NCBI GenBank assembly: GCA_964358505.1
Contig: CAYHOS010000002.1
Coordinates: 9,561 to 73,560, forward strand
Source: an uncultured Candidatus Peribacteria bacterium
Lineage (GTDB): Bacteria > Patescibacteriota > Gracilibacteria > Peribacterales > Peribacteraceae
Direction: 5' to 3'
Length of the DNA stretch: 64,000 nt
A program made the translations under genes and the position numbers. Every line of letters starts with the position of its first letter. Position 1 is the first letter of the stretch. The notes beneath the pieces were generated by a model that did no database searches, was not told where the DNA came from, and was given only the letters and a program-made list of their open reading frames with translations. Of this stretch, positions 6,077 to 49,263 are shown one piece after another.

Positions 6077-6152
6077 TGGTGGGCGGCATAGGAGTTGAAC
6101 CTACGACCTTTCGGATGTGAACCGAACGCTCTAACCACTGAGCTAGCCGCCC
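6077..6152 (-). tRNA. tRNA-Val (anticodon CAC)
   Basis: Minus strand reads GGGCGGC-TA-GCTC-AGTGGTTA-GAGC-G-TTCGG-TTCACAT-CCGAA-AGGTC-GTAGG-TTCAACT-CCTAT-GCCGCCC-A-CCA. This is a full cloverleaf with encoded CCA. Confidence 0.9.
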
Positions 6153-16205: not shown

Positions 16206-16345
16206 GATGACTGCCGCGTGATGTCCCTACCCCATCACGGATTGCCCTGTATGTCCAAGATGGAAATACAGAGAGACAATCTTTTTGCACAATAGTGTTT
16301 TTTTTGGCTTTTGCATCACCTATTTCATTAGTCCATATTTGTACT

Positions 16346-16912
16346 CATATTGTATTCGAGTCATACCCTGTCGCATACGCCACTCCAGCTAGTTGCTTGA
16401 TCCTGTGTGTTCGATAAGATGACATGATTTCTGCCGATGGCAGGAATCATCCTCACACAAAGGAGAGACAAACACCCACAGTACCCCGGGGTACCTACTC
16501 TCCCGCTCCTTCCCACCACCGTTCCACACACGTAGAGAGGAGGAAAGCCATGGACTAGCTAAACGTTCCTCCCGGCCACAATTCGCTTCACTTGCGCTTT
16601 CTGGGCACAGTGATCGTCTTGGCTTACCGTGGCTTGCCTCCTCTCTGCTCTGCAAAATCGCTTTCCCGTGCCGAGGACGCACGGGAAGTCGTCCCCCTCT
16701 TCCTCCCCTGTGCCTCCTCTGATCCCTCAGGGATCGTATGGCTGGCCGTCCCGGGGACCTCGTTCGGTTGCGAGGCTAATCAAGAACCATCGCAGGGCAG
16801 CAGAAGAAGCTCCTCCTTCACTCCTTCACTCTGTCGTTTCCGAGGCCAAACGAGCCTGCTTAAACACAGAGACAAACAGAGAGAAGACCGAACCTCACCG
16901 TTCGGTCTTCTC
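16346..16912 (+). ncRNA. candidate large structured non-coding RNA, unclassified (paralog 1)
   Basis: 730-nt gap between convergent genes with no credible ORF. Promoter-like TTGCAT-17-CATATT (16311-16339), many strong hairpins, and a 22-position long-range helix 16542-16563/16627-16648. Shares ordered blocks and covarying helices with the minus strand of 47068-47740. Confidence 0.45.
16881..16912. terminator. 13-bp hairpin downstream of convergent transcription units
   Basis: GAGAAGACCGAAC-ctcacc-GTTCGGTCTTCTC. On the minus strand it is followed by the T-rich tctgtttgtctctgtgttt, 22 nt after the stop of the 16935..18302 gene. Confidence 0.6.
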
Positions 16913-16934
16913 TTCATCTACAGAGCCAAACAAC

Positions 16935-18405: not shown

Positions 18406-21096
18406 CTACATTTTCGCCGCCATCATCGTTTTGCTCGGTGGGGGCACGCCACCCGACTCGACTAATTTCTTCTCCAGATCGGAGAGGTTCTTCTGTTCTT
18501 CCACCGTCAACGTCTCCCCCACGAACTGCTTCTTGCGCAACGCATTGAACTCGTTCGTCCAAAGCTCCCTATCCCTCCACTTGCGGTACTGCGCCAGGCT
18601 CATCCCCTTCTTGCGGGCTTTCTTGAGCTCTTCCTCCTCCTTCTCCTTGGCCTTCCCCTCCGCCCTGGCCTGCGTCTTGGCCGCCTTGCCGGAGGCCAGC
18701 CATTTGGCGATCTTCTCCTCCACCACGGAAACGCGCTCGGTGTAGCGCTCCCGCGAGAGCTTGCGGATCACGTCCACGCGCTTGGGATCCTCCTCCGCTT
18801 CCGGAGGCGGCAGCGTGCTCACGGAGAAGGGCTTGCTTGGCACCCCGTGGATCATGAGGCGGAGGTAGGCGTGGTACTTGGGGAGGCTGAGGATGTCCTT
18901 GGGCAAGACGACTTCTTCGAACTGCTCGCTGAGCGGCTCGGCGTCGTCGGAGCCGATCTGGAAGCACAGGAGCGAGCCCACGTTGCCGAAAATGGCGTCC
19001 TTGAGGGTGGTGTTGTTCCTCTCGCCGAAGAGGAGCTGGTTCACGTATTGGTTGGCCATCGTCAAATTGAGGCGGTACTTCCGCGCCTCGGAGAGGATGG
19101 TGGCAAAGGACTCCGTGGCGAAGTTCTGGAACTCGTCCACGTAGAGGTAGAAATCCTTCCGATCGCTCTCGGGAACGTCCGCCCTGCTCATGGCGTCCAG
19201 CTGGAACTTGGTGACCATCATGGAGCCGAGGAAGGCGGCGTTATCCTCCCCCAGCTTCCCCTTGCTGAGGTTCATGAGGATGATCTTCCCCGTATCCATG
19301 GCGTGGCGGATATCCAGTGTGGAGGTGACCTGGCCCACGATGTTGCGGACGAGGGGCGTGGAGACGAGCTGCCCGATCTTGTTCTGGAGCGCCGCGATGG
19401 CCTCGGTGCGGTACTTCTCGGACCAGTTTGTATACTCGTCCTCCCAAAAGCTCTTCACCAGGTGGTTCGTGGTCCGCTCCAGGATCTTGGCCCGGAAGGG
19501 GTCGTCCACGAAGATGCGGAGGATCCCCAGCATGGAGTTGTTCTCGGCTTCGATGAGCGCAAGGAGCGCGTTGCGGAGGATGTACTCCATGCGGCCGGAG
19601 AAGGCTTCCGGCCACAGCTTCTTGAAGATGCTCATGAGGCCGGAGGCCACGAGCGCGTGCTGCTCGGGGTTAGGGCAGTTGAGCATGTTGAAGGAGACGG
19701 GGAACTCGCGGTCCGCGGGGTCGAAGAGGATCACGTCGTTCGTGCGGCTTGAGGGGATGCACCGCAGCGCCGCGTCCACCAGATCCCCGTGGGGATCGAT
19801 GACGGCAACCCCTTTCCCCGCAAGGATGTCCGAACGGATCATGTTCTCCAGGAGGACGGACTTGCCCATCCCCGTCTTCCCGATGATGTACATGTGGCGG
19901 CGGCGGTCATCCGTGCGGATGCCGAACTTCTTGCGTTCCCCGCGGAACACCGCCTCCCCAAGGACCGTGAGTTCAGGATCCGGTACGTCGCCGACGATGG
20001 GGAGATCCACGGGCGGCTCCGCCTTGCGGTATGCCACCCAGTCGAAATTAGGGGTTTTGACGAGGATATTGGGCACGTGCCAGAGGGTGGCAACCTCCTC
20101 CACCGAGAGGACATACGGCCGCTCGCGGAAGCCGTGGGGTAAGCTGGAGACGTTCCGCGTGGCCCCTTCTTGGAAGCCGTTGGACTGGGGGAGGGTGAAG
20201 GGGCGGAAGCTGGAGATGATCTCGTCCGCCTTCGCCTCCGCCTGGGCATGCGCCTCCGCGGGCGCCATCACGCTCACGCGGACGTTGGCGAGGAAGAGGA
20301 GCCGGTTCACCTTGTCCACGGCGGCCGTCTCCGCGTCCTCCCGCTCGTGGCTGCGCATGCTCACCCGGTGGTCCTCGTCCGCTTCCGCCGCGTGGGCATC
20401 TTCTTCCGTGAGCGTTGCCAATGCCATGGGATTGATGAACCAGGTGCGGAACCCTCCCATGACCATATCGAGCGGAAAGAGGAGGAGCCGCCGCCAGCCC
20501 CGGGCAAGGTGGACGGAGCAGAAGAGCTTGGCGTACCAGGGGAAGTGCTTGGGGAGCCCTTTGACGAGGAACGGGATGAACGCCAGCGCCCGACGGCGGA
20601 AGCGCGGCCCCAGCGGCTTGATGGCCACTTGGATGTGGCCGCGCATGCCCGCGGCGGGGTAGCGGACGAGGGAGGAGGCCATCCCCGCGATGGTGTCCAC
20701 GTGCTGCCGCGTCACGAGGTCGATGAACTGCGGATAGCGCTTGATGGGCTGCACTTCCGGCCCCGTGGGCAGCAGATCGCAGAAGACCGCTGTCTCCCCC
20801 TCTTGGGGATCCAGGAGCCCCGCGGGCACCTCTTCGATCTCCGCGTCGGGATACTGCGCGTAGAGCTGGCTCTCGATGAGGGCGGCGGCTTTGCGGCTGG
20901 AGCGGACGTAGAGCGAGATCTTCCCCTCGCTCACGCCCATTTCCAGGCATACCGTCCCGTCCGCTCCCTTGAGCGAGTGCACAGCCGAGAGCACGGCCTC
21001 CATCATCAGGGGGCCGCGCGCGGCGCTCAGCGTATCGTCCGGATCGGGAAGGGAGGGGCGGATTCTCAGGAGAACTTCTTTCGGGCGTGATGCCAT
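18406..21096 (-). CDS. VirD4/TraD-like (type IV coupling protein family) P-loop ATPase, orphan
   Basis: Walker A IIGKTGMGKSV, Walker B FYLYVDEFQNF, an N-terminal domain of about 390 aa of unknown function and a Lys/Glu-rich C-terminal tail. ATG 21096 is preceded by TATACT-acccattg. The ORF track start at 21174 is a TTG. Confidence 0.8.
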   Translation of the reverse strand: MASRPKEVLLRIRPSLPDPDDTLSAARGPLMMEAVLSAVHSLKGADGTVCLEMGVSEGKISLYVRSSRKAAALIESQLYAQYPDAEIEEVPAGLLDPQEGETAVFCDLLPTGPEVQPIKRYPQFIDLVTRQHVDTIAGMASSLVRYPAAGMRGHIQVAIKPLGPRFRRRALAFIPFLVKGLPKHFPWYAKLFCSVHLARGWRRLLLFPLDMVMGGFRTWFINPMALATLTEEDAHAAEADEDHRVSMRSHEREDAETAAVDKVNRLLFLANVRVSVMAPAEAHAQAEAKADEIISSFRPFTLPQSNGFQEGATRNVSSLPHGFRERPYVLSVEEVATLWHVPNILVKTPNFDWVAYRKAEPPVDLPIVGDVPDPELTVLGEAVFRGERKKFGIRTDDRRRHMYIIGKTGMGKSVLLENMIRSDILAGKGVAVIDPHGDLVDAALRCIPSSRTNDVILFDPADREFPVSFNMLNCPNPEQHALVASGLMSIFKKLWPEAFSGRMEYILRNALLALIEAENNSMLGILRIFVDDPFRAKILERTTNHLVKSFWEDEYTNWSEKYRTEAIAALQNKIGQLVSTPLVRNIVGQVTSTLDIRHAMDTGKIILMNLSKGKLGEDNAAFLGSMMVTKFQLDAMSRADVPESDRKDFYLYVDEFQNFATESFATILSEARKYRLNLTMANQYVNQLLFGERNNTTLKDAIFGNVGSLLCFQIGSDDAEPLSEQFEEVVLPKDILSLPKYHAYLRLMIHGVPSKPFSVSTLPPPEAEEDPKRVDVIRKLSRERYTERVSVVEEKIAKWLASGKAAKTQARAEGKAKEKEEEELKKARKKGMSLAQYRKWRDRELWTNEFNALRKKQFVGETLTVEEQKNLSDLEKKLVESGGVPPPSKTMMAAKM

Positions 21097-21116
21097 CAAT
21101 GGGTAGTATACAGGAA

Positions 21117-21209
21117 ACGGACTTCGGACATCGGACTTCGGGCTAGACACTAGGTGGCCAAAGACCGCCTTCAAGAAACTTCAACCGAAGTCCGAATGCC
21201 GAAGTCCGT
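21117..21209. repeat. inverted repeat of GAAGTCC-type heptamer words (family A)
   Basis: acggacttcggacatcggacttcgg (21117-21141) pairs with ccgaagtccgaatgccgaagtccgt (21185-21209). The arms are 25 nt and near-perfect, with a spacer of about 43 nt, between the hrcA stop and the ATPase promoter. Confidence 0.8.
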
Positions 21210-36083: not shown

Positions 36084-36159
36084 TGGTGGAGCATGCCGGA
36101 TTCGAACCGGCGACCTTCTGGTTGCAAACCAGACGCTCTACCAACTGAGCTAATGCCCC
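36084..36159 (-). tRNA. tRNA-Ala (anticodon UGC)
   Basis: GGGGCAT-TA-GCTC-AGTTGGTA-GAGC-G-TCTGG-TTTGCAA-CCAGA-AGGTC-GCCGG-TTCGAAT-CCGGC-ATGCTCC-A-CCA. The G3:U70 identity pair is present. Confidence 0.92.
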
Positions 36160-40779: not shown

Positions 40780-40854
40780 CGGTGCCGTAGCCAAGGAGTA
40801 AGGCAGGGGTCTGCAAAACCCCCATACGTGGGTGCAATTCCCACCGGCACCTCC
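40780..40854 (+). tRNA. tRNA-Cys (anticodon GCA), atypical T-loop
   Basis: GGTGCCG-TA-GCC-AAGGAGTAA-GGC-A-GGGGT-CTGCAAA-ACCCC-CATAC-GTGGG-TGCAATT-CCCAC-CGGCACC-T-CCA. The U73 discriminator fits Cys. The T-loop has G where U55 is expected. Confidence 0.8.
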
Positions 40855-45628: not shown

Positions 45629-45735
45629 GGACACGGCATGCCGCGTCCTTACGATGATCCATGGAGCCATGCTTTTCTGCATGTCATGGGAAGCGCGGTA
45701 GCGCTTCCCCCCGCCCTGCGCTACCCTCAGCCCAC

Positions 45736-47031
45736 ATGAAGGTCGCCCGCGTCCTCCTCCCCCTCACCCTCGCCCTCCTGCTCGTGGCGGGGTTGCTTGC
45801 GTACCTGTGGCTGAACCTGGGCAACGCCGCGCAGGCTTTTCGCGTCCGCCCCATCCAAAACCCCCTCACCGCCAGCGTCCAGGACTTCTCCCCGGATGCC
45901 GGGGAAGGGACGGAAGGCGCCGCGCTCACGCATGTGCGGGAAGGCGACCGCAGTGCGCTCGCGGGGGATTGGAAGGGCGCGCAGGAAGCGTACGAGGCTG
46001 CCGTGGCCGCGGACGGCGGCGTGACGGCGCTCAAGAAACTCGCCCTCGCGCAGCTCCAGCGTCGTGACCTCAAGGCCGCTTCCCACACCGTCGAGCGCCT
46101 GCGGCGGGAGGGCGCCCGCGCGGAGGACATCCTCCTCCTGTCCGTCACCCTCGCCCTGCACCAACAAGACCTCACCCGGGCGGCAACGCTCCTCGGCAAG
46201 GCCGGCGAATCCCCGCACCGCCACTACGCCTCCGCCCTCCTGGCCATCGTGCAGGGGGAGCATGCACAAGCCCAGGCGGAGCTGCGCCTGGCCATGGACG
46301 GATGGGATCCGGTATTACGCACCTACGCCCGCACACTCCTGGACGCCTACGAGGAGTACGCGCTCTTCCCCCAGAGCCCCCCCATCCACCTCTCCACCCT
46401 CCTCGCCCGCAGCCTGGCGCAAGTGCAGGAATGCGCCCTCGCCCTCCCCTTCCTCAGCCGGGTGACGCAGCAGCAGGATGACTACCGCGACGCGTGGATC
46501 GTGCAGGGCTACTGCCAACTGGTCACGGAACGGACGCAGGAAGCACTGGCCTCCTTTGAGCGGAGTTACACCCTGGACCCCCAGAAGCCGGAGATCCAGT
46601 ACTTCCTGGGACGGACGTACGGCGCCATGGAGGACCACAAGAACGCCCTCACCTTCCTGCAGTACGCGCTCATGAACGGCTTCAATCCGGAGAAGGACGT
46701 GCGCCGCGCCATCGCCGCGGAGGCGGAGAAGGCAGGGAACGTGCAGCTGGCATTCGAGCAGGAGAAGATCCTCGCCACCGCTTCCGGCTCCGACCTGGCT
46801 TCCATCGCAGCGTTCGTCGCGTTGGCCCTCCGGGCGGAGCGGCAAAATGACGCCTTTGAAGCCGCGGAGAAGGCCACCCTCCGCTGGCCCGATTCCGCGC
46901 AGGCGTACGCCCTCCTGGGCTCCGCCGCGGAGGCCGCCGGGAAGAAGGATGAGGCGCGTTCCGCCTACGGGCGCGCGCTGGAGCTGGATGGCTCCCTGGA
47001 CGAGGTGAAGGAAAAACTCCTGAACTTGTGA
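45736..47031 (+). CDS. membrane-anchored TPR-repeat protein
   Basis: MKVARVLLPLTLALLLVAGLLAYLW (TM) followed by multiple TPR-like repeats. TACCCT-cagcccac-ATG. Confidence 0.75.
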   Translation: MKVARVLLPLTLALLLVAGLLAYLWLNLGNAAQAFRVRPIQNPLTASVQDFSPDAGEGTEGAALTHVREGDRSALAGDWKGAQEAYEAAVAADGGVTALKKLALAQLQRRDLKAASHTVERLRREGARAEDILLLSVTLALHQQDLTRAATLLGKAGESPHRHYASALLAIVQGEHAQAQAELRLAMDGWDPVLRTYARTLLDAYEEYALFPQSPPIHLSTLLARSLAQVQECALALPFLSRVTQQQDDYRDAWIVQGYCQLVTERTQEALASFERSYTLDPQKPEIQYFLGRTYGAMEDHKNALTFLQYALMNGFNPEKDVRRAIAAEAEKAGNVQLAFEQEKILATASGSDLASIAAFVALALRAERQNDAFEAAEKATLRWPDSAQAYALLGSAAEAAGKKDEARSAYGRALELDGSLDEVKEKLLNL

Positions 47032-47067
47032 TACCAGCATGCAATGGAAAGTGGTGTGCTGACGAAC

Positions 47068-47105
47068 AAAAAGACCGGCTTTCACCGATCTTTTTGTTTT
47101 TGTCT
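47068..47105. terminator. bidirectional intrinsic terminator
   Basis: AAAAAGACCGG-ctttca-CCGATCTTTTT followed by tgtttttgtctttt. The A-tract and T-tract allow termination in both directions. Confidence 0.7.
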
Positions 47106-47740
47106 TTTCCTCCCTGCGGACTATCAACGCCGAGTCACATGAGTCGAGCGCTGAGCCCCGTAATTGGAGAGGAGGACAGTGGGGGGAGGAGCCCCCGCTC
47201 CCTGCCTTGCTCGGGTTTCTTGTTTCTCCTCGGAACCCTCCGAAGTCCCCGTACCGGCCTGCCGCGAAGTGACGTGAGTCTCTTGGGAGGCACTGGGGAG
47301 AAGCAGGATGCACGCCGCTGGAGCGTCCTCACTTCCGCGGCGTGACATTGCAGAGCAGAGAGAATGGTAGCCGCTTGGTGTCCCGGGCACGCCCGCGCAT
47401 GCGGACGATACCGGAGGACAGGAACGGTCCGCACATCCCCGGATGCGCGGAAAGTCTTGAGCTTATGGGAAGGGACGGACCTCGGGAGCACAATGGATTG
47501 TGCGGAGGAGCGTGTTCCAGCCAGGGTGCCGTTTGGGACGGCCACCACCCTCTCTGCGGGAATCAGGGATCGATCCGCTCTCTCTTTCCGATTCCTGATT
47601 CCTTTCCTGTGTGTGTCAATGATCTGTTTTTGGGTTCTGTTTCCCTCTGTTTGTGCGCCCCGGGGCGCTTGTGTGTTTGTCTGTTTCTGTTGGTGATTTG
47701 CTCCCCACCCTTCGTTGGTACTCCAGGCGAGGAACAAATC
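47068..47740 (-). ncRNA. candidate large structured non-coding RNA, unclassified (paralog 2)
   Basis: 830-nt gap with no credible gene. Minus-strand promoter-like TTGCAC-16-TACGAT (reverse complement of 47746-47773). 18-bp helix 47540-47557/47355-47372 with 3 G-U pairs on the minus-strand reading. Block-wise homology to 16346-16912. Confidence 0.45.
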
Positions 47741-47865
47741 TGGGCATCGTACTCCGTATTGGATAACGTGCAAGATTTTGCGCTGGCGTAGAGCGGTGTA
47801 TTGTTTCACGAATACATTTTGTATTCAGGGAGACAGGAACCGATTATCCGCTAGAATCCCACAAA

Positions 47866-49263
47866 ATGACCGCTCCCCCACGCCTCCCGCGCCTCCTCCT
47901 CCCCCTTGCCATAGCCCTCCTCTTGGCTGTGTTGGGAACGGCACTCGTTTTCGCGGCTTTTCTCTTCCCTTCCAGGCAGAAGACGACGGCTGAGCTCCTG
48001 CCGGCGCGTGAAACCGTTGCCCTCTTCCACAATCTCACGACGGAGGATGCCGAGCGCTTCGCCCCGCGCTTCCCCATCCTGCAGGAAATCCCCCTCCCCC
48101 GGGAAGGCGGAACGGACGTTGCCATTGTGCGGCACCAGAACGGCAAGTACGGCTGGGTGGTGTTCCTCACGGGTGAGGCGGCAAAGGCCGTCAGCTCGCG
48201 CTTCCCGCTCGATACCGAGGACCTCGTGGTACGCGGCTCATCCGGCGCCCTTGCCCTGCTCGCAAGGCCCAATGTCCCCTCCCTCGCGAAGCTTGCAGAT
48301 TACCGAACACTCGTCCGGCTGGCGCCGCAGGAGAGGACGTGGCTGTTCCTCTCGGGCAACGTGATCCTTTCCGGGATCACGGAGGAGGACCGGCAGCTGC
48401 TGCAGCGCCTCAAGGACCATCCTTCCCTCCTCATCCAATGGGAGGATACCCGCGCCACCCTCTCCTTCGTGTCCCCCGCCTTGGGCGCCGTCCGGCTCTC
48501 CATGCCGCCCCCCGCGCTGGAACCCTCCCCCTCGTTCTCCGCCGCATTCACGCATCCTCAGAGGACGACGGAAGACCTGGCTTCCCTGTTCTCCCCTGCC
48601 GCCTCCCTCCTGTTGGAGGGGATAGTGCAACGGGAATGGGAACGGCTCATAGGAACGGAGGCGAGCGGGCGCTACGACCTCCTCCCGCTGCTGGGGAGGG
48701 AAGCCTCCGTGAGCGTCCTGCGGAGCCAGAGCGGGAGCCTGCGCTTCCTCCTGCAAACGCACACGCAGGACCCGGATGCGGCCAAGCGCATCGACCGCCT
48801 CCACCGCAGCGTCAAGCAGGCGCTCTCCACGCAGCGCATCGTGAGCCGGAACCTCCCCGAAGGCTTCGCGGTGACCACGATCGAGGATGACCCGGCGGTG
48901 ATCAACGAGGTACGGTCGCAATCGGGTGCATGGGCGATGCGGATGACGCGCCGGACGGACACGGGGGAGGGACTATGGACCGCTACGAACGGCCGCCGCC
49001 TCTTCCTCTCCAATGATCCTGCATGGTTGCTGCAGGTGATGATGAGGAATCCCGTCCCCTCCCTCACCCTCTCCCCGGGGCCGGGCACGCCGACCATGGG
49101 CGGGATCGTGGAGCGCACCGCTCTCCGGGGCTTCTTCAAGAACACCCTCAACCTCACCCTCCCCTCCACCCTCCTCTCCACCTTCGGCCCGCAGGGCGAC
49201 CGGTTCCTCTGGTCCGTTTCCCACACAGGGCTTGTGGCGACGGTGACGGTGGAAGGCGAATGA
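47866..49263 (+). CDS. membrane-anchored hypothetical protein (465 aa)
   Basis: N-terminal TM LLLPLAIALLLAVLGTALVFAAFLF followed by a large extracytoplasmic domain. TAGAAT-cccacaaa-ATG. Confidence 0.65.
   Translation: MTAPPRLPRLLLPLAIALLLAVLGTALVFAAFLFPSRQKTTAELLPARETVALFHNLTTEDAERFAPRFPILQEIPLPREGGTDVAIVRHQNGKYGWVVFLTGEAAKAVSSRFPLDTEDLVVRGSSGALALLARPNVPSLAKLADYRTLVRLAPQERTWLFLSGNVILSGITEEDRQLLQRLKDHPSLLIQWEDTRATLSFVSPALGAVRLSMPPPALEPSPSFSAAFTHPQRTTEDLASLFSPAASLLLEGIVQREWERLIGTEASGRYDLLPLLGREASVSVLRSQSGSLRFLLQTHTQDPDAAKRIDRLHRSVKQALSTQRIVSRNLPEGFAVTTIEDDPAVINEVRSQSGAWAMRMTRRTDTGEGLWTATNGRRLFLSNDPAWLLQVMMRNPVPSLTLSPGPGTPTMGGIVERTALRGFFKNTLNLTLPSTLLSTFGPQGDRFLWSVSHTGLVATVTVEGE

Follow-up and report, generated by a model that had tools for sequence, protein, structure and literature searches.

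Apart from rRNA, RNase P RNA, tmRNA and group I/II introns, few bacterial RNAs are, to our knowledge, both large (>400 nt) and intricately folded. OLE, GOLLD, ROOL, HEARO and raiA are among these, and a line of research has grown out of each. ROOL and GOLLD are often associated with phages or prophages, and their oligomers are held together by intermolecular RNA-RNA contacts. Homo-oligomers of OLE, ROOL and GOLLD were shown by cryo-electron microscopy (PMC12286853), and OLE adjoins the membrane-protein gene oapA and forms a dimer (PMC12286853, PMC12265935). Here, a predicted large non-coding RNA is described from an uncultured Candidatus Peribacteria bacterium (assembly GCA_964358505.1), a groundwater member of the Peribacteraceae. 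It is located on the minus strand at 47066-47740 of a 64,000-nt stretch of contig CAYHOS010000002.1, which was analyzed as a whole and is called the window below.

This region (copy 2) is probably a stand-alone gene for a large structured RNA that would act in trans, might associate with itself, and represents one of two ancient paralogues in Peribacteria; the other paralogue (copy 1) is also in the window. As shown by comparison among homologues, the predicted RNA has its own promoter, its own terminator and a modular fold, and encodes no conserved protein. The original prediction, made from the letters of the window, had proposed a pair of paralogous non-coding elements and, apart from two details corrected below, was borne out by 111 homologues. 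The phylogenetic breadth, the pseudoknot, the loop-loop contact and the palindromic hairpin reported below go beyond it.

Locus, homologues and transcription signals

Copy 2 occupies an intergenic interval between a TPR gene (45661-47031, plus) and a gene for a 465-aa membrane protein (47866-49263, plus). The interval was measured as 834 nt, in agreement with the gene-free interval of about 830 nt proposed earlier. The features of copy 2 are as follows, from the promoter to the terminator.

47746-47773, minus: sigma-70-like promoter, TTGCAC (-35, 47768-47773), 16-nt spacer and TACGAT (-10, 47746-47751); direct reading and homologues
47066-47740, minus: copy 2 (synteny type 2), whole transcript of about 670 nt from the putative start to the terminator U-tract; promoter/terminator conservation, nhmmer and fold z-score
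47695-47740, minus: S1, 5' hairpin GAUUUGUUCCUCGCC ... GGGUGGGGAGCAAAUC; minimum free energy (MFE) fold
47669-47694, minus: linker 1, A/C-only and single-stranded, ACCAACAGAAACAGACAAACACACAA; direct reading
47655-47668, minus: S2, perfect 14-nt palindrome GCGCCCCGGGGCGC, forming either a hairpin whose CCGG loop is self-complementary or a duplex between two molecules; homologues
47608-47654, minus: linker 2, A/C-rich, containing GAUCAUUGACACAC, the local form of the family motif GAUCMUUCACAYCA; motif in both synteny types
47559-47602, minus: lineage-specific hairpin before the stalk; MFE fold only, not conserved beyond close relatives
47540-47557, minus: stalk helix, 5' strand GCAGAGAGGGUGGUGGCC; covariation
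47373-47539, minus: variable apical domain of the stalk, 167 nt; enclosed length varies across the family
47355-47372, minus: stalk helix, 3' strand GGCUACCAUUCUCUCUGC; covariation
47066-47354, minus: conserved 3' core domain, about 290 nt; blastn, tblastn and covariation
47311-47344, minus: core hairpin H1, loop GAGGA at 47325-47329; up to 6 pair types per position
47257-47299, minus: nested helices UCCCC/GGGGA and GCCU/AGGC with a small hairpin; helices 4-6 are 100%, 90% and 69% paired, with two-sided changes
47210-47250, minus: H-type pseudoknot; compensated pair and unbiased mutual information
47181-47196, minus: core hairpin H4, loop CUCCUC, of which UCCUC at 47186-47190 pairs with the H1 loop; covariation
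47108-47173, minus: 3' sub-domain, closing helix UCCUCU/GGAGGA around GGCUCAG...UGAUAGUC and an inner hairpin; helices 10 and 11
47065-47095, minus: intrinsic terminator, A-tract, stem GAUCGG/CCGGUC and U-tract; direct reading and conservation in the alignment

A profile built from homologues with nhmmer matched exactly two places in the 64-kb window, and no third copy was found with it. The matches are 47068-47377 on the minus strand for copy 2 (E = 9e-68) and 16624-16908 on the plus strand for copy 1 (E = 1.5e-30); the latter identifies copy 1 as a true homologue. The fold z-scores against dinucleotide shuffles are -7.8 on the proposed strand vs -4.1 on the opposite strand for copy 2, and -7.6 vs -4.7 for copy 1.

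Homologous loci, numbered with L below, were collected through the flanking proteins and by scans with DNA patterns. Homologues of SecF (53-86% identity) were more productive handles for further loci than the 465-aa protein. The gene order of TPR gene, gap, a 466-aa protein, SecF and trigger factor is kept in the nearest species. The element was found at the equivalent place in all 10 species reached via a flanking protein alone, and with its strand unchanged in 8 of 8 SecF-anchored loci with DNA from further species, including Candidatus Peribacter riflensis. All protein-anchored loci contain CUCUGCUCUGCRA, AANCAAG and GCANGGCAG, spaced by 119-123 nt and 8 nt (7 nt in copy 1 of the window). 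The first pattern used for metagenomes, TCTGCAA...GAGGAC...CCCCNGTGCCTCC, was too strict, GAGGAC not being universal; it matched one true relative (L008) and, by chance, one site inside a coding region (L007). The DNA scan with the three motifs, in one genome per GTDB species, revealed 103 loci from 93 assemblies, 10 of which have two matches. Almost all bear the label Peribacteria, Peribacterales, Peribacteraceae or Peregrinibacteria; three are labelled "Patescibacteria group", one "bacterium", and one is an "Uhrbacteria" metagenome-assembled genome. Together with the loci found by synteny, and after removal of duplicates, there were 111 distinct elements, and this count of the family is a lower bound.

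The promoter TTGCAC-16-TACGAT named in the original prediction is present, and the promoter pair is kept among the homologues: a TA(C)(G/A)AT box stands exactly 5 nt before a conserved GATTT in 97 of the 111 elements. T, A and the final T of this -10 box are invariant, and TTGC is found 16-17 nt further upstream. The fixed distance of the box from GATTT puts the start of the copy-2 transcript near 47740, the coordinate chosen in that prediction. At the other end, the aligned homologues all finish in a hairpin followed by a U-tract, with covariation at the hairpin apex (helix 12 of a 41-sequence alignment). As had been predicted, the terminator can be used in either direction; it has a U-G pair when read as the minus strand, which corresponds to a C-A mismatch on the plus strand. 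In some relatives genes are inserted between the RNA and the TPR gene, and the terminator remains with the RNA. A promoter/terminator scan tool reported neither feature in the window. The promoter was overlooked because its match to the consensus is too weak, and the terminator because pairing between the A-tract and the U-tract consumes the U-run; therefore, both features were established by conservation.

These two signals, together with an excess of G-U pairs across homologues, point to the same strand as the original prediction. The cells of the core alignment contain 272 G-U pairs vs 126 A-C combinations, 85.2% of the cells pair on the given strand vs 80.6% on its complement, and the second pair of the stalk is U-G in 37 of 60 sequences. 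For copy 1, the expected G-U pairs on the plus strand were found, two in number. The assignment of the RNA to the minus strand for copy 2 and to the plus strand for copy 1 is thus well supported at the level of sequence.

Stalk, core and 5' region of the predicted RNA

The stalk was seen in essentially every member of the family, with a length of 18-22 bp. The helix of copy 2 consists of 15 Watson-Crick pairs and 3 G-U pairs on the minus strand, exactly as had been claimed; the latter would be C-A mismatches on the plus strand, and the helix extends to 20 bp. The proximal 8 bp (GYAGAGAG/CUCUCUGC) are nearly invariant, while the distal 10-12 bp covary freely. The register was set from the invariant proximal half only, and therefore the distal pairs are an independent test. 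Among 60 distinct homologues, 90.3% of the cells are paired, compared with 80.1% in shuffles and 38-58% with slid partners. Two-sided changes were observed at 13 of 20 pairs, and none of 500 shuffles reached the observed covariation score. The search for further copies, which the original prediction had named as a check, revealed a helix that covaries in these 60 sequences rather than breaking without compensation.

The ninth pair of the stalk (47549/47363; columns 9 and 36 of alignment A4) shows a different pattern: it is nonstandard in 24 of the 60 sequences (mostly A-C by eye), G-C in 20, G-U in 8 and A-U in 8. Such a pattern may reflect a wobble geometry that is conserved where the invariant part of the stalk meets the variable one. 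RNAalifold proposed an alternative pairing, CUCUCUGCU/GGCAGAGA, which was rejected; it competes with the covarying stalk, and its variation leads only to mismatches.

Across the family, the length enclosed by the stalk varies between 4 nt, where it is a plain hairpin, and about 240 nt, which bears out the earlier description of a conserved scaffold with a variable domain. The 167 nt given for copy 2 are correct (47373-47539). The 63 nt given for copy 1 are not; depending on whether its helix is taken as 18, 20 or 22 bp long, the enclosed length is 81, 77 or 73 nt. The apical insert of copy 2 holds a hairpin, CCGCGCAUCCGGGGAUGUGCGG, whose stem is compensated in the close relatives L009, L012 and L014. 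Several members of both synteny types have a different apical module, which contains CGUUCCUCCCGGCCA...CUGGGCAUAGG.

The 3' core is the most conserved part. In the nearest species, the 3' part of the gap (about 310 nt) is 95% identical in nucleotides and the 5' half is much more diverged, while the 465-aa protein is 68-69% identical. In further species the identity of the core is 77-87% where that of the 465-aa protein drops to 26-37%; for a protein identity of 32-37%, the core still has 86-87%. These identities show a core that evolves more slowly than the neighbouring proteins.

The core helices were recovered by an unbiased mutual-information scan of a 107-sequence MAFFT alignment, and RNAalifold concurs on the nested ones. 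A core structure of 82 pairs was tested on alignment A3, which consists of 41 sequences mostly <80% identical. The 85.2% of paired cells compare with 74.8% in shuffles and 44-49% with slid partners. Both sides have changed at 56 of the 82 pairs vs 39 expected, and doubly changed cells number 398 vs 134. On any of the five measures, no shuffle out of 500 matched the observed value.

In the H-type pseudoknot, the hairpin CUUCGG/CCGAGG (47240-47245 with 47228-47233) has a loop GGGUU (47234-47238), which pairs with AACCC (47213-47217), ten nt downstream. Between the two strands of the pseudoknot lies a strongly conserved A-rich strand, AGAAACAAGA (47218-47227). The pair at columns 164-181 (helix 8) is C-G in 18 sequences and U-A in another 18. 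In the 3' sub-domain, helices 10 and 11 are 74.5% and 91.4% paired, with two-sided changes at 15 of 16 pairs. Copy 1, L028, L030, L076 and L100 lack the closing helix of this sub-domain. An A/C tail before the terminator, ACAAAYACAAAAAG, is highly conserved.

The loops of H1 and H4 are predicted to pair with each other. Compensated forms are AGAUGAGC/GCUCAUCU in L017, GAAUGAG/CUCAUUC in L047 and AAGGAG/CUCCUU in L020, as well as GAGAA/UUCUC and GAGGUG/CACCUC. All five pairs of this contact (helix 3) show two-sided change. The mean duplex is 4.54 bp vs 4.26 +/- 0.06 bp when the loops are permuted among the sequences, and none of 200 permutations was as high. A reading of the two loops as Shine-Dalgarno and anti-Shine-Dalgarno mimics that engage ribosomes or mRNAs was rejected as the principal one; the loops covary with each other, and the GAGG/CCUC identity is lost in L017, L047, L052 and L062.

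Upstream of the stalk, direct reading of the homologues gives the order S1, A/C linkers, S2, GAUCMUUCACAYCA, optional hairpins and stalk, from 5' to 3'. The sixth pair of S1 is G-C, C-G or A-U across homologues (GAUUUG/CAAAUC, GAUUUC/GAAAUC and GAUUUA/UAAAUC). A/C-rich linkers are found at the place of linker 1 in both synteny types, with variable sequence and length. A/C-only runs are present in both copies of the window, as the original prediction had noticed for CA-rich runs. A pairing of the 5' UUCACAYCAAC with the 3' GUUGAUAG or with the apical loop UGUGA was rejected; by eye, the changes in L001, L003 and L013-L015 are uncompensated.

A perfect palindrome of at least 8 nt is found at S2 in 66 of 103 elements. 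The length is 8-14 nt, with 63 of the 66 being 10-14 nt. The centre is CCGG in 48, GGCC in 12, CGCG in 4 and GCGC in 2, and the arms differ between species. Such perfect palindromes are poorly explained by a simple hairpin, because the loop bases of a hairpin need not be self-complementary. RNAcofold gives -39.5 kcal/mol for the dimer of copy-2 S2 vs 2 x -9.4 kcal/mol (-18.8) for two hairpins, and copy 1 is similar. The palindrome and this computed preference of about 20 kcal/mol for the dimer suggest self-association.

Two synteny types and neighbouring genes

Copy 1 has the same layout as copy 2, and its features are as follows, together with an inverted repeat found next to copy 2.

16393-16914, plus: copy 1 (synteny type 1), RNA 16426-16914; nhmmer and fold
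16393-16420, plus: promoter TTGCTT/TAAGAT
16426-16448, plus: S1
16481-16494, plus: palindrome GUACCCCGGGGUAC
16532-16553 with 16627-16648, plus: stalk
16881-16914, plus: terminator
47810-47826, unstranded: inverted repeat GAATACATTTTGTATTC between the divergent genes, upstream of the RNA promoter of copy 2; kept in L004, L009-L012, L014 and L015

The family can be divided into two types based on the genes around the element, as located with tblastn and the flanking proteins of the window. In type 2 (about 63 loci), the element and the TPR gene converge, while the genes for the 465-aa protein and SecF point away from it. Type 1 (about 23 loci) is downstream of glyA (SHMT) on the same strand and, like copy 1, convergent with the gene for a 922-aa VirD4/TraD-like ATPase. 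The paralogy proposed earlier thus holds as two conserved genomic positions across Peribacteria. The two paralogues are about 31 kb apart in the window, and 24-32 kb apart on CAZHQF010000001.1, CAZVOK010000002.1 and JAGOTD010000003.1; therefore, the intervening segment is syntenic across the class. Copies from the same genome share only 54-68% identity in the core, and 73 of 81 elements have a nearest sequence neighbour of their own synteny type. The duplication must therefore be older than the spread of the class. These data are consistent with two ancient paralogues of one RNA family, apparently restricted to the class Peribacteria within the Candidate Phyla Radiation (CPR).

L033 has a complete type-1 element and, directly upstream of it, a truncated second copy that retains a remnant of the 3' strand of the stalk and the beginning of the core. 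The 922-aa coupling ATPase convergent with copy 1 (18406-21174, minus) has TrwB_AAD_bind and T4SS-DNA_transf domains and is kept beside other type-1 copies. Upstream of the copy-1 promoter, a half-site TTGTATTC and TACGCCA (16340-16390) are found at a distance equal to that of GAATACATTTTGTATTC in copy 2. Judged by this arrangement, the inverted repeat may be an operator or an upstream promoter element shared by both paralogues.

The 465-aa membrane protein occupies the place expected for secD, directly upstream of secF and tig. It has no match in Pfam, NCBIfam or PDB. Its identification as SecD was rejected, as it shows no similarity to SecF and none to entries of these databases. The protein is fast-evolving (26-37% identity among Peribacteria) and is syntenic with type-2 RNA copies in >30 loci. 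It was also found on Hainich groundwater contigs, and the two relatives retrieved by search are labelled only Patescibacteria or Candidatus Peribacteraceae.

Just 3' of the RNA terminator, L009, L011, L014 and L015 share a further conserved hairpin-like stretch, CATGGAAGGGCCAC.TACGGTGTCCCTCCCATG, which the window lacks. This stretch might represent another small element, or else terminate the inserted neighbouring gene.

Alternative explanations and known systems

The element might instead encode a protein, in the 224-aa open reading frame (ORF) on the minus strand at 47135-47809 or in a small ORF, or it might be a cis-acting leader or riboswitch of a neighbour. The ORF does cover most of the element, and hypothetical proteins are called on homologues in public annotations. 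It contains 14% Arg and 8% Pro, and matches nothing in Pfam. The original prediction had called it unconvincing and the only long ORF; it is the longest one, and plus-strand ORFs of 149 and 110 aa are also in the interval. None of the six frames is conserved; stops interrupt each of them within the 270-nt core in all but 7-17% of the members, and the substitutions in the helices are compensatory. The orientation contradicts a leader, since transcription of the RNA leads away from the 465-aa gene. With either synteny type the element ends at a terminator that faces a convergent gene, and therefore nothing downstream is there to regulate. Either form of this explanation is hardly credible. In relatives, public annotations place genes of 76-203 aa over the RNA (L010 7345-7863, L014 7913-8470, L016 8017-8628 and L009 7185-7415), again with no match in Pfam, and these are probably spurious hypothetical proteins. 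A very divergent form of a universal RNA (RNase P RNA, 6S RNA, tmRNA or SRP RNA) that the Rfam models do not recognize is also highly improbable, even if RNAs from CPR bacteria are often atypical and the short words GAGCAAGGC and CCAGUGC presumably match E. coli M1 RNA. The resemblance to RNase P in these words and CAGAGAG was rejected, since their order differs from that in M1 RNA and no model matches. The 4227 covariance models of Rfam 15, which include OLE, ROOL, GOLLD, HEARO, raiA, RNase P, 6S, tmRNA, SRP and the known ribozymes, detected only three tRNAs in the whole window at the gathering thresholds; these tRNA genes (6080-6152, 36087-36159 and 40781-40852) are the sole Rfam matches in the 64 kb. 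At E <= 10, copy 2 gave only unrelated noise below the thresholds, and the best match of copy 1 was Thr_leader on the terminator, with 28 bits against a threshold of 55. Nothing was found at E <= 1 in eight other loci, so that no family of the universal RNAs appeared in either copy or in these loci. ARAGORN reported no tRNA or tmRNA in any of the 111 elements. The 5' hairpin is local, and neither an end-to-end (P1) pairing nor a P4-type arrangement is seen, with no RNase P model matching at E <= 10. In place of the 6S rod with its central bubble there is a multi-domain fold of 500-700 nt with a pseudoknot, and no Rfam 6S model matches. The maintenance of two ancient paralogues with different sub-domains also speaks against a divergent housekeeping RNA.

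Two further explanations keep the RNA and change its role. The A/C-only runs, including ACAAAYACAAAAAG, could be repeated binding sites of a protein, in which case the RNA would titrate or regulate that protein as CrcZ/CrcY and RsmY/RsmZ do, and the core would only stabilize and present the sites. The conserved positions of the A/C-rich linkers in both synteny types, where sequence and length vary, fit such a role, as do the high conservation of the 3' A/C tail and the maintenance of two paralogues. However, the slowest-evolving part is the folded core and not the linkers, and the known RNAs of the CrcZ/Rsm type are simple strings of hairpins or motifs that lack both pseudoknots and long-range contacts between loops. 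A candidate for the protein partner did not emerge. Moreover, A and C cannot pair with each other, so the runs would also suit plain non-pairing spacers, and a titrating RNA is on balance unlikely. A ribozyme, or a catalytic RNA-protein particle, with a new activity is more doubtful still. Its active site would be the conserved unpaired stretches of the core, CUCUGCUCUGCRA, CCAGUG, AGAAACAAGA, GCAAGGCAG, CUCAG and GAUAG, and the combination of a pseudoknot, a tertiary contact and a tolerant periphery is a pattern common to RNase P and group I introns. On the other side, no known ribozyme model matches, there is no hint of a substrate or a cleavage site, and the conservation of several of the unpaired motifs is inflated by the search pattern.

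The reading as a stand-alone trans-acting RNA, possibly self-associating, was weighed against several observations that count against it. The transcript ends are read from promoter and terminator motifs. That the three motifs are invariant in the 103 loci of the scan is a product of the search pattern, and unbiased evidence comes from the protein-anchored set. The core helix UCUGC/GCAGR (5 bp) is retained but almost invariant, which makes it untestable by covariation, and RNAalifold prefers a competing pairing. H4 is poorly aligned by MAFFT (61% paired), and the contact between H1 and H4 could be purely intramolecular. The perfect S2 palindrome is missing in about one third of the members, including several type-1 copies (e.g., L028 and L076). 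The idea of oligomerization rests on palindromy, which would fit a plain hairpin with a CCGG loop or a site acting at the DNA level as well.

A trans-acting RNA nevertheless remains the preferred reading. It would function as a folded RNA or an RNA-protein particle, and not as an antisense or cis-regulatory element. The compact and slow-evolving core would be the functional centre, a platform for binding or catalysis, and the stalk apex and the 5' linkers would be a tolerant periphery. The palindromic hairpin, possibly together with the loop-loop pair, would let RNA molecules associate with each other. A more far-reaching version is offered only tentatively. In that version, the host-dependent, genome-reduced Peribacteria would have a class of large ornate RNA of their own, new in itself and with a new tertiary core fold. 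Its members would assemble through the palindromic G/C loop and the loop-loop contacts into homo-oligomeric or hetero-oligomeric (type 1 + type 2) particles of RNA only or of RNA and protein, and these would do a structural or catalytic job that is done by proteins in other bacteria.

As no membership test run for any known family assigned the RNA to that family, it was filed as a new RNA family. In full-text literature searches, such an RNA was not found in connection with Peribacteria, Peregrinibacteria or CPR, and this would be the first such family described for the CPR. The genomes of these organisms are about 1-1.4 Mb and keep little that is dispensable. Despite the small genomes, two paralogues are maintained across the whole class, with a core slower than the neighbouring proteins. 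The >100 natural variants are available for structure determination, and the family offers a testable structure and a specific hypothesis of oligomerization. It also flags spurious "hypothetical protein" calls in public annotations of Peribacteria and supplies a lineage marker.

Among the known systems, RNase P RNA shares a slow-evolving pseudoknotted core and helix apices with lineage-specific insertions, but the Peribacteria RNA lacks its defining conserved regions and its P1/P4 topology, and has two paralogues. CrcZ/CrcY and RsmY/RsmZ are likewise pairs of paralogues with their own promoter and terminator and with repeated single-stranded A/C-rich or GGA motifs. These sponges are shorter and simply structured, whereas the Peribacteria RNA is most conserved in its folded core. 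The dimerization initiation site of HIV-1 is similar in having a self-complementary G/C hairpin loop capable of a kissing dimer or an extended duplex. The loop is 4 nt in the Peribacteria RNA vs 6 nt, and the context is entirely different, so the analogy is mechanistic only.

ROOL and GOLLD are, like the Peribacteria RNA, large ornate bacterial RNAs whose function is unknown. By the potential of its sequence, the covarying loop-loop pair and the self-complementary loop of the Peribacteria RNA could hold oligomers together as the intermolecular contacts of ROOL and GOLLD do. Their Rfam models do not match it. In contrast to their frequent association with phages, the Peribacteria RNA is chromosomal and strictly syntenic; it occupies two fixed positions across the class, and no match was found among the viral contigs of IMG/VR. 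OLE, an RNA of Bacillota whose Rfam model does not match either, is similar in several respects. Both RNAs are stand-alone, about 600 nt long and confined to one lineage, with an intricate conserved fold, many conserved unpaired nucleotides and an unknown biochemical function. OLE lies next to oapA, and the type-2 copies of the Peribacteria RNA divergently adjoin an uncharacterized membrane-protein gene. Homologues of oapA, oapB or oapC were not seen, with no search aimed at them. The two differ in host phylum, and the two paralogues per genome, the A/C-only linkers and the G/C palindrome are features of the Peribacteria RNA and not of OLE.

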